Shown: positions 16,883 to 32,951 of the stretch, one piece after another | Layout of the letters: each line of letters opens with the position of its first letter | How positions within the stretch are numbered: position 1 is the first letter of the stretch | Translations under genes and position numbers: made by a program | Assembly (NCBI GenBank): GCA_963702475.1 | Contig: CAVPCT010000005.1 | Span: forward strand, 640,001 to 704,000 | From: an uncultured Thermoleophilia bacterium | Lineage (GTDB): Bacteria > Actinomycetota > Thermoleophilia > UBA2241 | Length of the DNA: 64,000 bases | Reading direction: 5' to 3' | Notes under the pieces: model-generated | What the model saw: only the letters and a program-made list of their open reading frames with translations | The model's database searches: none | Told to the model about the DNA's origin: nothing

Positions 16883-19599
<2,717 letters not shown>

Positions 19600-19603
<4 letters not shown>

Positions 19604-20295: not shown

Positions 20296-22197
20296 ATGCA
20301 CGCCGTGCAGCTGGCCTTCACCACCGTCGACGATCTCCACGCGCTGCTCGAGCAGGCGGGCGAAGCTCTCGACTACCGGGAGGTGTGGCCGCACCTCTTC
20401 CCCGTCTCCAACTGCCCGCCTGAGCTCATGCACAGGCTCGTCGCCGACATCGTCCGCGAGGACGAGCGATTCTCGTGGGAGAGCGACGTGCATGTCGGTC
20501 TCGCGGCGTGGCGGGCGCGGCGCCGCGACCTCGCCGACGTCGCCTTCACCGTGGTCGACCTCGAGACCACGGGGGCCACGCCCGGCTTCTCCAAGATCAC
20601 CGAGATCGGGGCGGTGCGCATCGAGGGCGGCCGCGAGATCGGCACGTTCTCGGCCCTGGTCAACCCCGGTGTGCCCATCCCCGAGATGATCACCGGCATC
20701 ACCGGCATCGACGATTCCACGGTCGCCGACGCGCCGCCCATCGACGAGGTGCTGCCCCGGTTCGTCGACTTCGCCGCCCACTCCGTGCTGGTGGCGCACA
20801 ACGCCCCGTTCGACCTCGGCTTCCTGGACTACGAGCTGGGGCGCACGGAGCGCCGCACGTTCCCGCGCCCGGCGCTCGACACGCTGCGTCTGGCGCGAAA
20901 GCTCTGCCCGCAGCAACGCTGCTCGCTCAGCGCGCTGGCGTACCGCTTCAACACCAGGGTCAAGCCGGTCCATCGCGCCCTGCAGGACGCGCAGGCCACC
21001 GGCGAGCTCCTGCTCCTCTTCCTCTCCCGGCTGGAGGAGCAGGGTATGAGCACGCTGGAGGAGGTCGCGCGCTTCTGCGAGCCGGGGTCGCGGCGCAACT
21101 ACCACAAGATCACCCTCACCGAGTCGCTCCCCAACGTCCCCGGCGTCTACATCATGCGCGACCAGAATGGCGTCGCTCTGTACATCGGCAAGGCCGAGAA
21201 CCTCAAGCGGCGCGCACGCGACCACTTTCTGCAGCGTCAGGCCTACCGCGCCCGCCAGGCCCTGGAGCTGCTCGATAGGTTCGAGGTGGTCGAGACCGGC
21301 TCCGAGTTCGGCGCCCTCCTGCTCGAGCAGCGCCTCATCCACAAGCACCGGCCGGCGTTCAACTCGCATGGCACCCGGGTCGCCGGCTACTCCTACGTCA
21401 AGCTCAGCGCCGAGGAGTATCCGCGCCTGTACGCCACGCCGAACCTGCGCGACGACGGCTCGTACTACGCCGGGCCGTTCCGCAAGGCCGGCGTGGCCCG
21501 GCGCCTTGTGGAGGCCATCCACGGCGTGTACCCGCTGCGCACGTGCGCGCACCTGCCCGGCGCACGCGCCGCCGCCCGCCCGTGCCAACGGGCGCACACC
21601 GGCGCGTGCCTCGCGCCCTGCGCGCGCCCCCTCAACGGCGACTACGCCGACGCGGTAGCAGAGGTCCGGCGCGTGCTCGACGGGCACGGTGAGGCCGTCG
21701 ACGAGCGCCTGCAGCAGCGCCAGGCGGGCATGGTGCAGGCCCTGGCGTTCGAGCAGGCCGCGCGCCTGCAGCGCCAAAGAGAAGCGCTCGAGCGCTCCGT
21801 GCGCGGCATCCGCCGCCTGCGCGCCGCCCAGGCGCACGACGCCGTCATCGTGCAACCGGCGCGGCGGCGCGGCTGGGCGGCCCTGTGGGGCGTGCGCGGC
21901 GGCCGCATCGCCGTCGAGCGCGAAGTGGGCCGCACGGCCTTCGACCTCGAAGCGGCCGCCGCCTTCCTCGCCGAGCTGGCGGCGGCCCCGCCCCCGGCGC
22001 AGCCAGTGGCGGCGGGCGACGTCGACGAGCTCCTGCTCGTACACTCGTGGCTCACGAGCAACCGCGAGTCGGTGCACGTGCTCGACGCGAGCGACCTCGC
22101 GGCCGGCCGCCGCGGCGCCGGCGAGCTCGCTCCGGCGCTCCTGGAGCGCCTCCGCCTCTGCGCCGGCGCCGGCCCGGCCGCCACGGCCGGCGCCTGA
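20296..22197 (+). CDS. DEDDh (DnaQ-like) exonuclease fused to GIY-YIG UvrC/Cho-like and UVR domains
   Basis: VVDLETTG, VAHNAPFD, HRALQDA; PGVYIM..LYIGKAENLKRR; LAFEQAARL. Confidence 0.9.
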   Translation: MHAVQLAFTTVDDLHALLEQAGEALDYREVWPHLFPVSNCPPELMHRLVADIVREDERFSWESDVHVGLAAWRARRRDLADVAFTVVDLETTGATPGFSKITEIGAVRIEGGREIGTFSALVNPGVPIPEMITGITGIDDSTVADAPPIDEVLPRFVDFAAHSVLVAHNAPFDLGFLDYELGRTERRTFPRPALDTLRLARKLCPQQRCSLSALAYRFNTRVKPVHRALQDAQATGELLLLFLSRLEEQGMSTLEEVARFCEPGSRRNYHKITLTESLPNVPGVYIMRDQNGVALYIGKAENLKRRARDHFLQRQAYRARQALELLDRFEVVETGSEFGALLLEQRLIHKHRPAFNSHGTRVAGYSYVKLSAEEYPRLYATPNLRDDGSYYAGPFRKAGVARRLVEAIHGVYPLRTCAHLPGARAAARPCQRAHTGACLAPCARPLNGDYADAVAEVRRVLDGHGEAVDERLQQRQAGMVQALAFEQAARLQRQREALERSVRGIRRLRAAQAHDAVIVQPARRRGWAALWGVRGGRIAVEREVGRTAFDLEAAAAFLAELAAAPPPAQPVAAGDVDELLLVHSWLTSNRESVHVLDASDLAAGRRGAGELAPALLERLRLCAGAGPAATAGA

Positions 22198-28264: not shown

Positions 28265-28293
28265 TTTACACGAACATATGTTCGTGCTACAGT
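28265..28293 (+). promoter_or_regulatory. Housekeeping-sigma promoter with a LexA SOS box in the spacer
   Basis: -35 TTTACA (28265-28270), 17-nt spacer, TG-c-TACAGT -10 (28288-28293). Perfect palindrome CACGAACATATGTTCGTG (28269-28286) matches GAAC-N4-GTTC. Confidence 0.93.
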
Positions 28294-28340: not shown

Positions 28341-28772
28341 ATGGCAGGCGGCGGAGCCACCCCCGAAGACAGGCCAAGGACCGGCGCCGGCGGCGCCCGC
28401 CGCGAGGGCGCCACCGAGGCCGGCGGAGGCGGCGCCGGGGCGAGCGATCGGCCGGTCGGCGGCGCAGGCGGCGCGCCTGCGCCCGAGGGCGCGTCCGCGC
28501 CCGGCCGCGCGCGGCGCCAGGGTCCCTCCCTCCCCGCCCCCGTCGCCGTCGGCTGGAACGAGCGGCAGCGACGTCCCGTCAGCTTCGTGTGGCGCCGACG
28601 CCGCTACCGGGTCGAGCGCGTGCTCGAGACCTGGGTCCTCGAGACCGGCTGGTGGAAGGACGACGGCCACGTCAGCCGCGCGTACTGGCGGGTGCGCGCC
28701 GAGGGCCGCGTGTTCGACCTCCGTTACGACCGCCTCAGCAAGGCGTGGGCGCTGGAGCAGGCGCTCAACTGA
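28341..28772 (+). CDS. DUF6504-like small protein with a Gly/Ala-rich N-terminal extension
   Basis: RPVSFVWRRRRYRVERVLETWVLETGWWK..YWRV..FDLRYD..W. AGGAG RBS. Confidence 0.8.
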   Translation: MAGGGATPEDRPRTGAGGARREGATEAGGGGAGASDRPVGGAGGAPAPEGASAPGRARRQGPSLPAPVAVGWNERQRRPVSFVWRRRRYRVERVLETWVLETGWWKDDGHVSRAYWRVRAEGRVFDLRYDRLSKAWALEQALN

Positions 28773-28783
28773 GCGCGGCCGCC

Positions 28784-31700
28784 GTGAGCTTCGTCCACCT
28801 GCACACGCACAGCACCTTCTCGTTCGGCGACGGCGCCTGCCGCATCCCCGAGATGGCCGCGCGCGCCGCCGAGCTGGGCATGCCGGCCCTTGCGGTCACC
28901 GACCACGAGGGCCTGTACGGCGCCGTGCGTTTCTACCAGGCCTGCAAGGCCGCCGGCGTCAAGCCCATCATCGGAGTCGAGCTCACCGTCGAGCCGGCCG
29001 TCGGCCCCGGCGGCCGCCCCTGGGAGCCCGATCTCGATCATGAGCCCGGCGCCGCCCGTGGCCGGTGTGGCGAGGCACGAGAGATGATGCGAGACGGGGT
29101 GACGCGCCCGACGTCCGCAGCCGCAGGCGCGCAGGGCGGACAGGGGGTTGAGGGAGAGCAGCCGCCGCAGGCGGGCTACCGTGCGGGGCGGCGTAGCGTC
29201 ACCGCACATTCTGCAGGGCCGCCGAAGGCGAGCCCGAAAGGAGCGGAGCGCCCTCCCGATGCCCCCTGCCCGCCCGGAGCGCCGTCAGGGTACGGAGCGC
29301 CGAACGGGCACACGCCGCCCTTCGCCGCGCTCCCGTCCCTCGCCCCCGACGGCCACATCCGGCACCTCTCGGCGGCGGCTACGGTGCCGCCCGCCGCCGC
29401 GAACGCCTCCGGCGCCGGCGGCCACCACCTCGTGCTCCTGGCCAAGGACTACGCCGGCTGGAGCAACCTGTGCCGCATCATCAGCGCCGCGCACCTGGAG
29501 CATCCGGGCGAGCCTCCGCTAGCCAGGCTCGCCACCCTCGCCGAGCACAGCGGCCACCTCGTCGCGCTCAGCGCCTGCCGCCGCGGCGAGGTCTGGTCGC
29601 GGCTGCTCGCCGGCGACGCGGCCGGCGCCCGCGCCGCGGCCTCCGTGCTTCGCGGCATCTTCGGCCGAGAGCTCTTCATCGAGCTGCAGCACGAGCTGCT
29701 GCCCGACTCCGGCGCGAGTCTCCGCGCCCTCGACCTGCTTGCCCACGAGCTGCGCCTGCCCACGGTGGCCACCAACGACGTGCACTACACCGTCAAACAG
29801 GACGCCGGGCTGCACGACGTGCTCGCCGCCGAGGCCGCCAACCAGCCGCTGCCCAACCCGCTGGGGCGCAAGAACGCCGAGCTCTACCTCAAGAGCCCGG
29901 CGCAGATGCGCCGCCTCTTCCAGCGCTACCCGGAGGCGTACGCCAACGCCGGCCGCATCGCCGCGCGCTGCAACCTCGACCTCGGACTCGGCCGGCTCCT
30001 CTTCCCCGCCTACCCGCTGCCGCCCGGCGAGACGGCCTTCTCTCTGCTCTGGAAGCGCTGCTTCGCGGGCGCCGCCGAGCGCTACACGCCGCTCACCGCC
30101 GAGGTCACCGCGCGCCTCGAACGCGAGCTCAAGGTGGTCGAGGAGCTCGGTTTCGCCGAGTACTTCCTCGCCGTGCATGACATCGTCGGGTTCGCGCGCA
30201 GCCGCGGCATCTACTACTCCGGCCGCGGCTCAGCCGGCAACAGCATCGTCAGCTACGTGCTGCGCGTCACCGACGCCGACCCCATCGCCAACGAGCTGCT
30301 CTTCGAGCGCTTCCTCAACCCTGCCCGCAGCGAGATGCCCGACGTGGACATCGACTTCTGCTCCGCCCGCCGCGACGAGGTCATCCAGTACATCTACGAG
30401 CGCTTCGGCCACGACAAGGTCGCCATGGTCGCCACCGTCAACACGGTGCGCGCGCCCTCCGCCGTGCGCATCGTCAGCCGCGCCTTCGGCTTCACTCCCG
30501 ACGAGATCAACGCCCTGTCCAAGCGGGTGCCCTGGGGCAGCGCGGCCAAGCTCGGGGAGATGCTGGAGGAGCGCCCCGAGCTCGCCGACCACGAGTTCCG
30601 CCACCCGCACTTCCGCCGCCTCGTGAGCGTAGCCGAGCGCCTCTCCGGCTTCCCGGCGCACCTCGGCACCCATCTCGGCGGGTTCATCCTCTCGCGCGAC
30701 CCGCTCACCGACCGCGTGCCGCTGCAGTGGGCCGCCAAGGGCGTCGTGGTGGCCCAGTTCGACAAGGACGACGTCGAGACGCTGGGCCTCGTCAAGATGG
30801 ACATCCTCGCCCTCAAGATGCACTCCGCCATCGCCGAGGCGGTGCGACGCATCGAGGCGCGCACCGGCGAGCAGGTCAGCGCCTGGGAGCTGCCGCGCGA
30901 CGACCCCAAGGTGTACGAGCTCATCCGCTCGGCACGCACCGTGGGTCTCTTCCAGCTGGAGAGCTCGGGACAGCGCAACCTGGCCACACGTCTCCAGGAG
31001 CGCGACTTCGAAGACGTCATCGCCGCCATCTCGCTGTTCCGCCCGGGACCGCTGCAGGCCGAGATGATCGCGCCATTCATCAGGCGGCGGCACGGCCGCG
31101 ACCCGGTCGCCGTGCCGCACCCGGCCATGGAGCGCATCCTGCGCCGCACCTACGGAGTCATCGTCTACCAGGAGCAGGTCATCGAGGTGGCGGCCGCGGT
31201 GGCCGGGTTCAGCCTCTCCGAGGGCGACATGCTCAGGCGGGCCATGACCCACGAGCGGTCCCTGGAGGAGATGGACGAGATCGGCCGCACCTTCGTCGCC
31301 AAGGCCATGGCGCGCGGCGTGGCACAGGACGTGGCCGAGGAGGTCTTCCGCCAGCTGCGCGGCTTCGCCGCCTACGGCTTCAACAAGGCGCATGCGGCCT
31401 GCTTCGCCATCGTCTGCAATGCCTCGGCGTGGCTCAAGGCGCACTACCCGGCCGAGTTCTACTGTGGCATCCTCAACAACCAGCCCATGGGCTTCTACTC
31501 GCCGCGCGTGGTGCTCAACGACGCGCGGCGCTTCGGCCTCAAGGTGCTGCCGCTCGACGTGAACCGCAGCGGCGAGTGGTTCGAGGTGGAGCGAGGCGGG
31601 CGGGCGCTGCGGGTGGGGCTCGCCTACGTCAAAGAGATGAGCGCCGCGGCGCGGCAGGCGATCGTAGAAGCACGCGGCGACGGGACAGCCGCTGCCGGGC

Positions 31701-32951
31701 AGGAGAGGGTCTCAGGGGGGCGCTCCGCTCCTTCCGGACTGCCTTACGGCGGTCCTGCAGAGCCCCCTTCGACCCTCTCCTGCCCTTCCGCGACCGTCCC
31801 GGAAGCCGCGCTCACGAGCCCGCTCGTCGACGCGGCTTGCGGACCCGGCCGGGCGGGCGCGCCTTCGGCCGGCCCGCCCGGCGAGAGCCTGGCCGCGGTG
31901 GCGGAGGGGCCGCCGCGGCCGTACACCTCGCTCACGGACTTCATAGCGCGCACGCGCGTGGGTCGCGAGATCGCCGAGAACCTGGTACGCCTCGGCGCCT
32001 TCGACGCGCTCGGCGTACGCCGCGAGGAGCTGGTCGCGCAGGTGCCCCTCCTCTACGCCGGCGCGAAGCCGGCCGGCGCCGCGGCTCAAGCGGGCCGAGG
32101 CCGCCGGCGGCTCTTGCCGGGCGCGGAGGGACGGGTGGGGGTCGACGGAGGCTCTGCAGGGCCGCCGTCAGGCAGCCCGAAAGGAGCGGAGCGCCCTCCG
32201 GAGACCCCCACCCGGCCCGCAGCGTCCGGCTTCGGCGAGGCCGCCGGCGGCCTCGGCCTCGATCAGCCGCGGCTCGCCCTGGACGAGCAGTTCGCCCCCC
32301 TCGCCTTTCTGCCGGACTGGCCGGCGCAGCGGCGCGTCAGCATCGAGCTCGAGCTGCTCGGGCTCAACGTCACCGCCCATCCGCTGCGCTTCGTGCGCGA
32401 GCAGGTCAAGGCGCTCGGGGTCACGCCGGTGGCGCGCCTGCCGCAGGTGCCGCACGGGCGGCGGGTGCGCCTGGCCGGCGTGCTCGAGCGCGCCCAGATG
32501 CCCTGGATCCGCAGCGGCCACCGCACCATGTTCCTCACCATCGAGGACGAGACCGAGCTTGGGGCAGGTGGTGGTCTTCAACGACGTCTACCTCAGGTAC
32601 GGACGCGTGCTCAAGAGCGCCGTCTATCTGTTGATCGAGGGCGAGCTGCAGAACGACGAGGAGCACGGTCTCGCCGTGGTGGCGCACCGCATCATGGACC
32701 TCACAGAGGTGCTGGGACGGGGCGGCGTGCTGCCGACGGGGGGGCGCCGCCACGAGCCGGCGGCGGGCGCCGAAGGCGCCGGCGGTACCCCAGCCGCAGA
32801 CGGCTTCCCACCCGGGGCCTGGTCGCCGATTGCGACCGCCGGCCCCCACGCGGGAGCTCCGTCTGTCCCCGGCGGTCTCACCTCCCGGCGACCCGACGCC
32901 TGGGAGTTGCCTGCGGTGGAGCCGCGCACACGGCCGGGCCGCACGGGCTGA
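28784..32951 (+). CDS. dnaE2: Error-prone DNA polymerase III alpha (DnaE2) with three large in-frame insertions; frameshift at ~32560 in the OB domain
   Basis: FVHLHTHS, TDH, TNDVHY (PHP); GRGSAGNS, PDVDIDF, KMDIL (catalytic Asp); YGFNKAHA, NNQPMGFYSP; MFLTIEDET. SOS-regulated context. Confidence 0.9.
29134..29275 (+). repeat. Palindromic element copy A, in frame in the dnaE2 PHP domain
   Basis: Terminal stem GGGCGGACAGGGGG/CCCCCTGCCCGCCC (one mismatch). Core 29211-29250 CTGCAGGGCCGCCGAAGGCGAGCCCGAAAGGAGCGGAGCG. Confidence 0.8.
31697..31785 (-). repeat. Palindromic element copy B, inverted and in frame in dnaE2
   Basis: Perfect 15-bp stem GGGCAGGAGAGGGTC/GACCCTCTCCTGCCC. Minus-strand core 31721-31760 CTGCAGGACCGCCGTAAGGCAGTCCGGAAGGAGCGGAGCG. 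Confidence 0.85.
32132..32214 (+). repeat. Palindromic element copy C, in frame in dnaE2
   Basis: Perfect 12-bp stem CGGGTGGGGGTC/GACCCCCACCCG. Core 32154-32193 CTGCAGGGCCGCCGTCAGGCAGCCCGAAAGGAGCGGAGCG. Confidence 0.85.

Follow-up and report, generated by a model that had tools for sequence, protein, structure and literature searches.

Integron attC sites are strand-specific hairpins of single-stranded DNA (ssDNA) that are conserved in structure and lie next to toxin–antitoxin cargo. Other families of DNA palindromes come close to the elements considered here. Repetitive extragenic palindromic (REP) sequences of the GTAG/CGTC type have been found in frame in dnaE2 and in other repair genes, which are sometimes their sole coding targets (Di Nocera et al. 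2013, PMC3733652), and the question of this hairpin pile-up, raised in 2013, was left open. In the Ssn system, SsnA cuts upstream of a directional hairpin (Chenal et al. 2025, PMC11893778). The subject of the present analysis is a dnaE2-type polymerase gene of an uncultured Thermoleophilia bacterium (UBA2241; assembly GCA_963702475.1), located in a stretch of 64,000 nt (hereafter the window; contig CAVPCT010000005.1, positions 640,001–704,000, forward strand). Three inserts in this gene had been described from the letters alone as an unreported family of palindromic elements lying in frame in both orientations (the original prediction). No description of the family was indeed found in the open-access literature (the supplements of PMC3733652 and PMC11893778 not included), and passages of PMC3919608 and PMC4129139 have nothing on inserts. 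Repeats inside dnaE2 and repair genes are already known; the scaffold family is a fresh variation on this theme, which its polarity, its link with toxin–antitoxin genes, and the absence of a known enzyme turn into a good test case.

Table 1. Features of the dnaE2 locus, in window coordinates
Feature	Position	Strand	Remarks
LexA-type box, perfect, CGAAC-N4-GTTCG	28271..28284		upstream of the DUF6504–dnaE2 two-gene unit
DUF6504 small open reading frame (ORF)	28341..28772	+	Pfam PF20114, E 1.4e-9; precedes dnaE2
dnaE2-type polymerase gene	28784..32951	+	PHP, Pol3 core, finger, HhH and OB domains
Variable loop A, 435 nt	28991..29425	+	PHP domain; replaces ~15 residues of T. aquaticus-type DnaE 2hpi
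Copy A, 160 nt	29124..29283	+	outer stem, GCA/GGA loop, 16-bp stem, GA/GA loop, 6-bp stem, nested unit and core
Nested ~51-nt two-hairpin unit, second GNA-loop family	29158..29209	+	profile search; inside copy A
Apical core of copy A, 40 nt	29211..29250	+	GAA-triloop hairpin and GCGGAGC mini-hairpin
Variable loop B, 279 nt	31640..31918	+	within HhH motif; orthologue empty form of 45 nt
Copy B, 109 nt	31688..31796	-	the template strand is the one that folds
Variable loop C, 339 nt (between anchors)	32006..32344	+	between HhH and OB
Copy C, 109 nt	32118..32226	+	element scans

All three inserts are built on one scaffold (Table 1). The unit of 109 nt consists of an outer stem of 5 bp, a GNA/GNA internal loop, a stem of 16 bp, a GA/GA loop in the context pyrimidine-GA-purine, a stem of 6 bp, and a variable tip. 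The inverted repeat that was predicted to keep pairing despite sequence change does so, but it is not 12–15 bp long, the actual stem being 5 + 16 + 6 bp with two fixed internal loops. Likewise, there are three insertions as stated, but the element itself occupies only 109–160 nt of each 279–435-nt loop. The shared 40-nt core is present as exact matches at 29211–29250 (+), 31721–31760 (−), and 32154–32193 (+), just as had been noted; it represents one tip type, in which a hairpin capped by GNA or GNNA is combined with a GCGGAGC mini-hairpin.

Copies B and C fold beyond shuffled sequences (z −8.4 and −4.5; 0 of 200 shuffles each), while the 141-nt stretch tested for copy A gave z 0.0 because it excluded the displaced 5′ arm. 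In 16 dnaE2 copies, 97% of the cells are paired and both sides have changed in 15 of the 27 pairs; in 50 diverse copies, 92.8% of 1339 cells are paired and 24 of 27 pairs are compensatory, with slid-partner controls at ~50%. Conservation of the element as a base-paired structure, suggested at the outset, is thus borne out by covariation in both sets.

The loops and tips reveal a folding strand. In 40 of the 50 copies, GNA makes up both outer loops; the motif GCGNAGC was counted 60 times on the strand that folds versus 4 on the other, and GNA- or GNNA-capped 3-bp hairpins occur 37 versus 6 times. Wobbles are G-T in 73 cases versus A-C in 18. Loops of the tandem-GA and GNA/GNA kinds are motifs favoured in DNA. 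Mini-hairpins of the GCGNAGC type are far more stable as DNA than as RNA and are poor binders of the ssDNA-binding protein SSB (PMC13037366). Since the mismatch loops are kept, the mini-hairpins are one-stranded, and the motifs are DNA-favoured, the element seems to be a strand-specific ssDNA structure and not an RNA.

It had also been supposed that the inserts form a structured RNA tuning the dnaE2 transcript, and it is true that the stems fold well as RNA and that many intergenic copies lie 16–45 nt past a stop codon, as REP mRNA stabilisers do. However, transcripts of copies past stop codons carry the strand that lacks the conserved loops, and those of copies ahead of start codons carry the loop-bearing strand; triloops and tetraloops other than GNRA prevail, orientation varies among sites and genera, and an Rfam search gave seven matches, all under the gathering score (best E 0.25). 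With loops of DNA type and transcripts carrying either strand, this part of the prediction is not upheld, and an RNA function is considered very improbable.

In the 4.3-Mb assembly that contains the window, the element occurs three times, always within dnaE2 (three full-length blastn matches). A covariance model adds to these three strong matches only a weak one of 50 nt (E 0.18), and a sequence-free scaffold scan returned three matches, with none in the reversed and complemented controls. Thus, the expectation that the core would recur elsewhere fails in its own genome, but intergenic and dnaE2 copies of the scaffold do exist in genomes of the same family. Hits were obtained in 38 of 89 family genomes and none in 51, with 1–16 copies per genome (maximum in G109). 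The 96 distinct hits comprise 50 in dnaE2 (from 31 genomes), 2 lying in frame within one gene for a FAD-binding/4Fe-4S oxidoreductase, and 44 that are intergenic or unresolved. The predicted concentration in dnaE2 therefore holds for 3/3 copies in the own assembly and 50/96 hits in the family, or 50 of the 52 coding hits as opposed to 2 elsewhere. The oxidoreductase gene, the sole coding host seen besides dnaE2, carries the scaffold at L069:2483-2588 and L073:2559-2667 and, judging by the stem alone, in L219. A pattern search supplied 80 metagenome loci; 23 of these proved to be genuine members, 16 of which lie in dnaE2.

Outside the family, nothing was detected in 116 genomes from the class that belong to other families or in a draw of 140 genomes from the phylum (strict filters, 26 candidates scored per genome). 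The exact scaffold pattern matched 10 loci in GTDB genomes, nine labelled Thermoleophilia and one Actinomycetes. Plasmids yielded 15 weak partial matches, none with 80% cover, and viral contigs one pattern match without the scaffold, a second search giving zero. Going by the named hits, the element family was found only in one Thermoleophilia family.

The orthologues, arranged on a DnaE2 tree of 69 rows, suggest a long history for the three sites. Four genera have site A filled, and all 25 anchored copies there are forward. At site B, 13 copies are reverse and 2 forward, with two more reverse copies lacking anchors, including that of the window's own genome; site C has 8 forward and 7 reverse copies, all the reverse ones belonging to genus g22. 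As predicted, the element is used in both orientations: copy B is antisense, and within genus g22 the frame in which one subtype is read at site A varies. Empty sites, which an alignment of orthologues was expected to define, exist as 45-nt loop forms. Of the 22 rows that make up a derived clade, only one gave a hit in the fetched gene (21/22 none). Of two sisters, G064 is filled, while G036 has short loops with half an element at B; this contrast, together with other half-elements, shows loss by deletion. The target-duplication test was negative: the longest direct repeat of the flanks was 5.1 nt versus 4.8 nt for mismatched pairs, and repeats of at least 7 nt flank 7 of 50 copies versus 8% in the control, although duplications in old copies could have been lost. 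Judged from these alignments, the elements are old, inherited at fixed sites across genera, and lost by deletion, and the idea of three recent mobile insertions has to be abandoned. Within each of 3 out of 7 genomes, the tips of A and C are 93–98% alike, and the stems only 59–78%; as a tendency, each site has stems of its own, whereas tips move.

As regards the protein, the three loops are multiples of three nucleotides and free of stop codons, and loops A and B stand where solved DnaE structures have links of ~15 and 3 residues. In an AlphaFold model from 23 sequences, the pLDDT of the loops is ~25–33 versus 75–90 in the flanking PHP and HhH helices; this weak model (55.7; a single-sequence model reached 39) was used solely for the loop contrast. 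The prediction that the inserts lie in protein loops is supported in that low-confidence loops are modelled in place of short links, and by genes and model the inserts are in-frame palindromes within loops in the manner of Rickettsia palindromic elements. Filled loops are in frame in most genomes, which makes splicing or excision of the inserts unneeded; phase variation through frameshift is likewise rejected for now. Frame exceptions occur at empty sites too and resemble assembly indels. In practice, the inserts inflate DnaE2 proteins and confuse their annotation in this lineage.

Could the inserts be merely conserved protein loops or assembly artefacts? The peptides of sites A and C are alike, site A has a third-position bias (see below), and indel errors are present in this assembly. 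However, orthologues with 45-nt loops exist, and the scaffold is found in 23/80 metagenome loci and 38/89 genomes, where it may be antisense, intergenic, or in other frames. The intergenic and antisense copies in particular leave this explanation largely refuted and barely credible.

Intergenic copies of the scaffold occupy fixed junctions, namely ftsY-ffh, ubiA-ubiX, and hypD-hypE, as well as positions at purD, upstream of dnaE2, after an hdr-like CCG gene, and between relA and a gene of the metallo-beta-lactamase fold. They are accompanied by variable cargo, namely VapBC, HigBA, YefM-YoeB, BrnT, HepT-MNT, and fragments of restriction operons, which often borders the element at the 5′ side of the hairpin. 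Pairs flanking cargo are mostly minus-then-plus, two being direct. The polarity is the same in and between genes: the folding strand has its 3′ end closer than its 5′ end to the nearest host-like gene in 28 of 34 intergenic locus types, and in 52 of 55 dnaE2 copies the extra sequence is longer at the 5′ side, flipping with orientation at sites B and C. Partial arm copies flank intergenic elements at the 5′ side in 15/52 cases and at the 3′ side in 11/52. In genus g22 (L062, L064, L088, L091, L096, L101), truncated arm copies are stacked in tandem and resemble stutter scars.

Copy A exceeds B and C by 51 nt, with a nested unit that displaces its 5′ arm and belongs to a second repeat family. Three profile rounds gave 79 hits of this family in the own genome (E ≤0.01) and none in the reversed genome. 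The hits form 59 clusters with a tandem spacing of 51–55 nt in 17 of 20 intervals; 45 of the clusters directly follow a same-strand gene, and the GNA mini-hairpins are distributed 88 versus 4 between the strands. By a tight pattern, the second family is present in 21/89 family genomes. Site A of G028 contains such a nested unit as well, and so does site C of a relative in contigs from two runs of two studies (88% likeness; joints made by the repeats are possible). Such nesting is the strongest indication of hairpin modules moving from locus to locus in this lineage. The second-family unit amounts to 17 codons, is often in tandem, starts at or beside stop codons, and has no transposase nearby; it sometimes forms an in-frame N-terminal extension, for instance of the Lon encoded in the window, and another copy in the window lies at ~19552–19603 (−). 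Pfam and NCBIfam scans of the genes beside the second family revealed no partner enzyme. One unit does have an integrase gene linked to a tRNA at a distance of ~260 nt (L327), a proximity taken as chance.

The explanation favoured here, held with about even confidence, is that the dnaE2 inserts are old, low-copy, family-restricted, strand-specific ssDNA hairpins of the REP/SRM kind that are processed by an enzyme at their 5′ side. The GNA strand, once single-stranded in a replication gap, in incoming DNA, or during SOS, would fold and resist SSB. A trans-acting enzyme would recognise the folded strand and cut or stall at the 5′ side of the hairpin, where repair would add DNA (partial arm copies, foreign genes, or other hairpin modules) and would also swap tips between copies. 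Products in dnaE2 would survive in tolerant loops with the frame kept, as disordered Gly/Pro/Ala linkers under mild peptide constraint.

A number of observations weigh against this explanation. Y1 transposases (PF01797), which would mark the cognate RAYT predicted for the element, are absent from the own genome and present in 2/89 family genomes, both without an element hit and neither with an element at the locus, so that a RAYT partner is not supported. DUF559 was found in 9/89 genomes, with the element at none of those loci; GIY-YIG domains (PF01541), among the 150 listed of 170 matches, are all in frames of at least 172 aa, mostly of UvrC or DEDD-GIY-YIG size; no IS110 or tyrosine integrase (PF00589) lies beside the element in five genomes; and no partner enzyme was recognised by Pfam in 69 cargo ORFs. 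Because dnaE2 copies served as seeds for the models, the share of dnaE2 is inflated, and a deeper search of two genus g22 genomes gave 16 and 10 hits, mostly outside dnaE2. The genomes are related, making the counts non-independent, and the flank anchors were chosen by the analyst. Over all pairs, mean tip identity is equal within and between genomes (0.66, 0.64, 0.64). Arms have been perfected in some copies (L031, L004, L043), and template switching alone can produce arm covariation. Finally, changes in the arms of site A fall on the three codon positions as 19/17/46 (82 in total; 66/42/202 in the coding control), and 13 of the variant codons are synonymous as against 23 non-synonymous ones, which shows a mild peptide constraint. 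Accordingly, the claim that selection acts on the nucleic acid rather than the peptide stands with regard to structure conservation but fails as an absolute, 46 of 82 changes at A being in third positions.

The same data bear on a possible, though doubtful, alternative in which the elements are passive scars and no dedicated enzyme exists: a stable hairpin would stall polymerases, slippage and template switching would make the arms, duplications, and tip swaps, and dispensable, loop-tolerant dnaE2 would retain the debris longer than other genes. The fruitless partner searches agree with it, as do the tandem partial arm copies on both sides (15/52 and 11/52), the frequent loss by deletion in the derived clade (21/22 rows without a hit) with persisting half-elements, and the unrelated palindromic inserts in other loops of DnaE2 from neighbouring lineages. 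Template switching would, however, erase mismatches, yet both GNA loops are maintained in 40/50 copies across genera; nor are the single orientation at site A (25/25) and the one-sided polarity expected of scars. For the open question of hairpins in repair genes, the family offers a clean handle, with a scaffold bearing compensatory changes, a defined folding strand, a polarity shared by coding and intergenic copies, and both filled and empty orthologues. Discovery of an enzyme would mean a structure-specific activity in ssDNA processing not known before, as well as a new way of acquiring toxin–antitoxin genes; if there is none, the family shows to what extent structured DNA can be kept up and propagated by host polymerases alone.

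When compared with the described systems, the element turns out to share features with several of them. Like the GTAG/CGTC REPs, it is in frame in dnaE2 and lineage-restricted, while REPs elsewhere are mostly intergenic (PMC3733652). REP stems measure 5–13 bp and are present in tens to thousands of copies, in contrast to 109 nt, a three-tier stem of 27 bp, and 1–16 copies here; the GTAG/CGTC tag at the foot of REP stems has little counterpart (GTAG near the end in 1/51 copies, CGTC in 8/51), and no RAYT gene flanked by the repeat was found. NTS/SRM hairpins of the Ssn system are likewise directional ssDNA structures with action on the 5′ side, lie beside variable genes, and have a plausible role in gene exchange (PMC11893778). 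By analogy, the element would most plausibly work like these hairpins. However, SRMs are 20–50 nt long and rarely intragenic (2% in N. meningitidis; PMC11893778), unlike the element in dnaE2; their degenerate motif is in 0/51 element copies; and the small single-domain GIY-YIG gene of Ssn has no stand-alone counterpart in the family among the 150 matches listed of 170.

Rickettsia palindromic elements are likewise in-frame palindromes in protein loops, ~100–150 nt long and known to be translated (PMC10969869), but they reside in many unrelated metabolic genes with a conserved peptide, whereas 50/52 coding hits of the present element are in one gene, in both orientations and several frames. MITEs, the miniature inverted-repeat transposable elements, have terminal inverted repeats conserved in sequence, while the element's arms covary freely (24/27 pairs), and there is no signal of target-site duplication. 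The likeness to attC lies in a strand-specific hairpin beside toxin–antitoxin cargo, but the RYYYAAC...GTTRRRY core (R′/R″) is in 0/51 copies, no integrase is adjacent in five genomes, and the cargo is mostly between inverted pairs and includes gene fragments. In its defining features, then, the element does not qualify as a REP, SRM, MITE, RPE (Rickettsia palindromic element), or attC site.

The motif vocabulary also recalls single-strand initiation (ssi) signals, and a domesticated priming or restart signal, at which host primase or a PriA-type complex would start synthesis on the ssDNA element, was weighed as an improbable alternative. Such a signal would convert incoming DNA or restart forks, and inverted pairs would prime across cargo; neighbouring pairs around cargo are in fact mostly minus-then-plus. 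The F–G intergenic stretch of phiX174, the primosome assembly site (PAS), contains the YGAR tandem-GA motif and GCGAAGC. GNA mini-hairpins are common to the element and to ssi signals and are known from the G4 ori, in RSF1010 ssiA (CCGAAGG, also in the core of copy A), and in N4 promoters (PMC13037366). The likeness is at the level of motifs, with no sequence or model match, and the element is chromosomal and intragenic, being found in none of the plasmids, phages, and other viral contigs searched. Its absence from most of a large clade and from 51/89 genomes would be odd for a useful host signal.

Another conceivable scheme, a long shot, is a host-run, transposase-free system whose hairpins mark both gene-capture slots and the SOS mutasome gene, and in which the DnaE2 complex or neighbouring products (for example the DEDD-GIY-YIG protein) would copy, swap, and extend them under stress. 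If this were true, the mutator polymerase would bear the very sites that serve as its substrate, and gene capture under stress would be coupled to mutagenesis. A gene for a DEDD exonuclease–GIY-YIG fusion, a candidate partner, is located at 20296–22197 (+), ~8 kb upstream of dnaE2, and many family genomes have a GIY-YIG match within ~10 kb of dnaE2.

As for the host gene, a domain search of its product identified the PHP, NTPase, finger, and HhH parts of a DnaE-type polymerase, and the gene ends with the RPGRTG tail seen in orthologues. Another DnaE, ~38% identical, is encoded elsewhere in the genome, which makes the gene in the window the dnaE2-type copy. The CGAAC-N4-GTTCG palindrome at 28271 is taken by us to be a LexA box of the Gram-positive type; 23 looser boxes are scattered across the genome. 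The original prediction considered the reading frame and catalytic motifs intact, and this is right for PDVDIDF, KMDIL, and the frames of the loops, but not for the gene as a whole: one extra base at ~32559 shifts the OB domain and breaks the frame in the assembly. Relatives' contigs from 4/4 sequencing runs lack this base, and uvrC is also frameshifted in the assembly (contig C5, ~164100, −), so the dnaE2 frameshift is probably an assembly error. None of the sequencing runs covered half of the stretch, the matches being contigs of relatives, and the cover by an RNA run is no sign of transcription. A second dnaE2 copy on contig C2 (~411500–414008, −), with loops B and C empty, ends at the contig edge and groups with the emptied clade; it is a paralogue or contamination (assembly contamination 6.5%). 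In a neighbouring family, DnaE2 proteins in frames of 1400–1580 aa (L183-L186) carry other, AT-richer palindromic inserts of the TTGCA...TGCAA type in other loops, and L182 DnaE2 contains yet another insert type, present twice.

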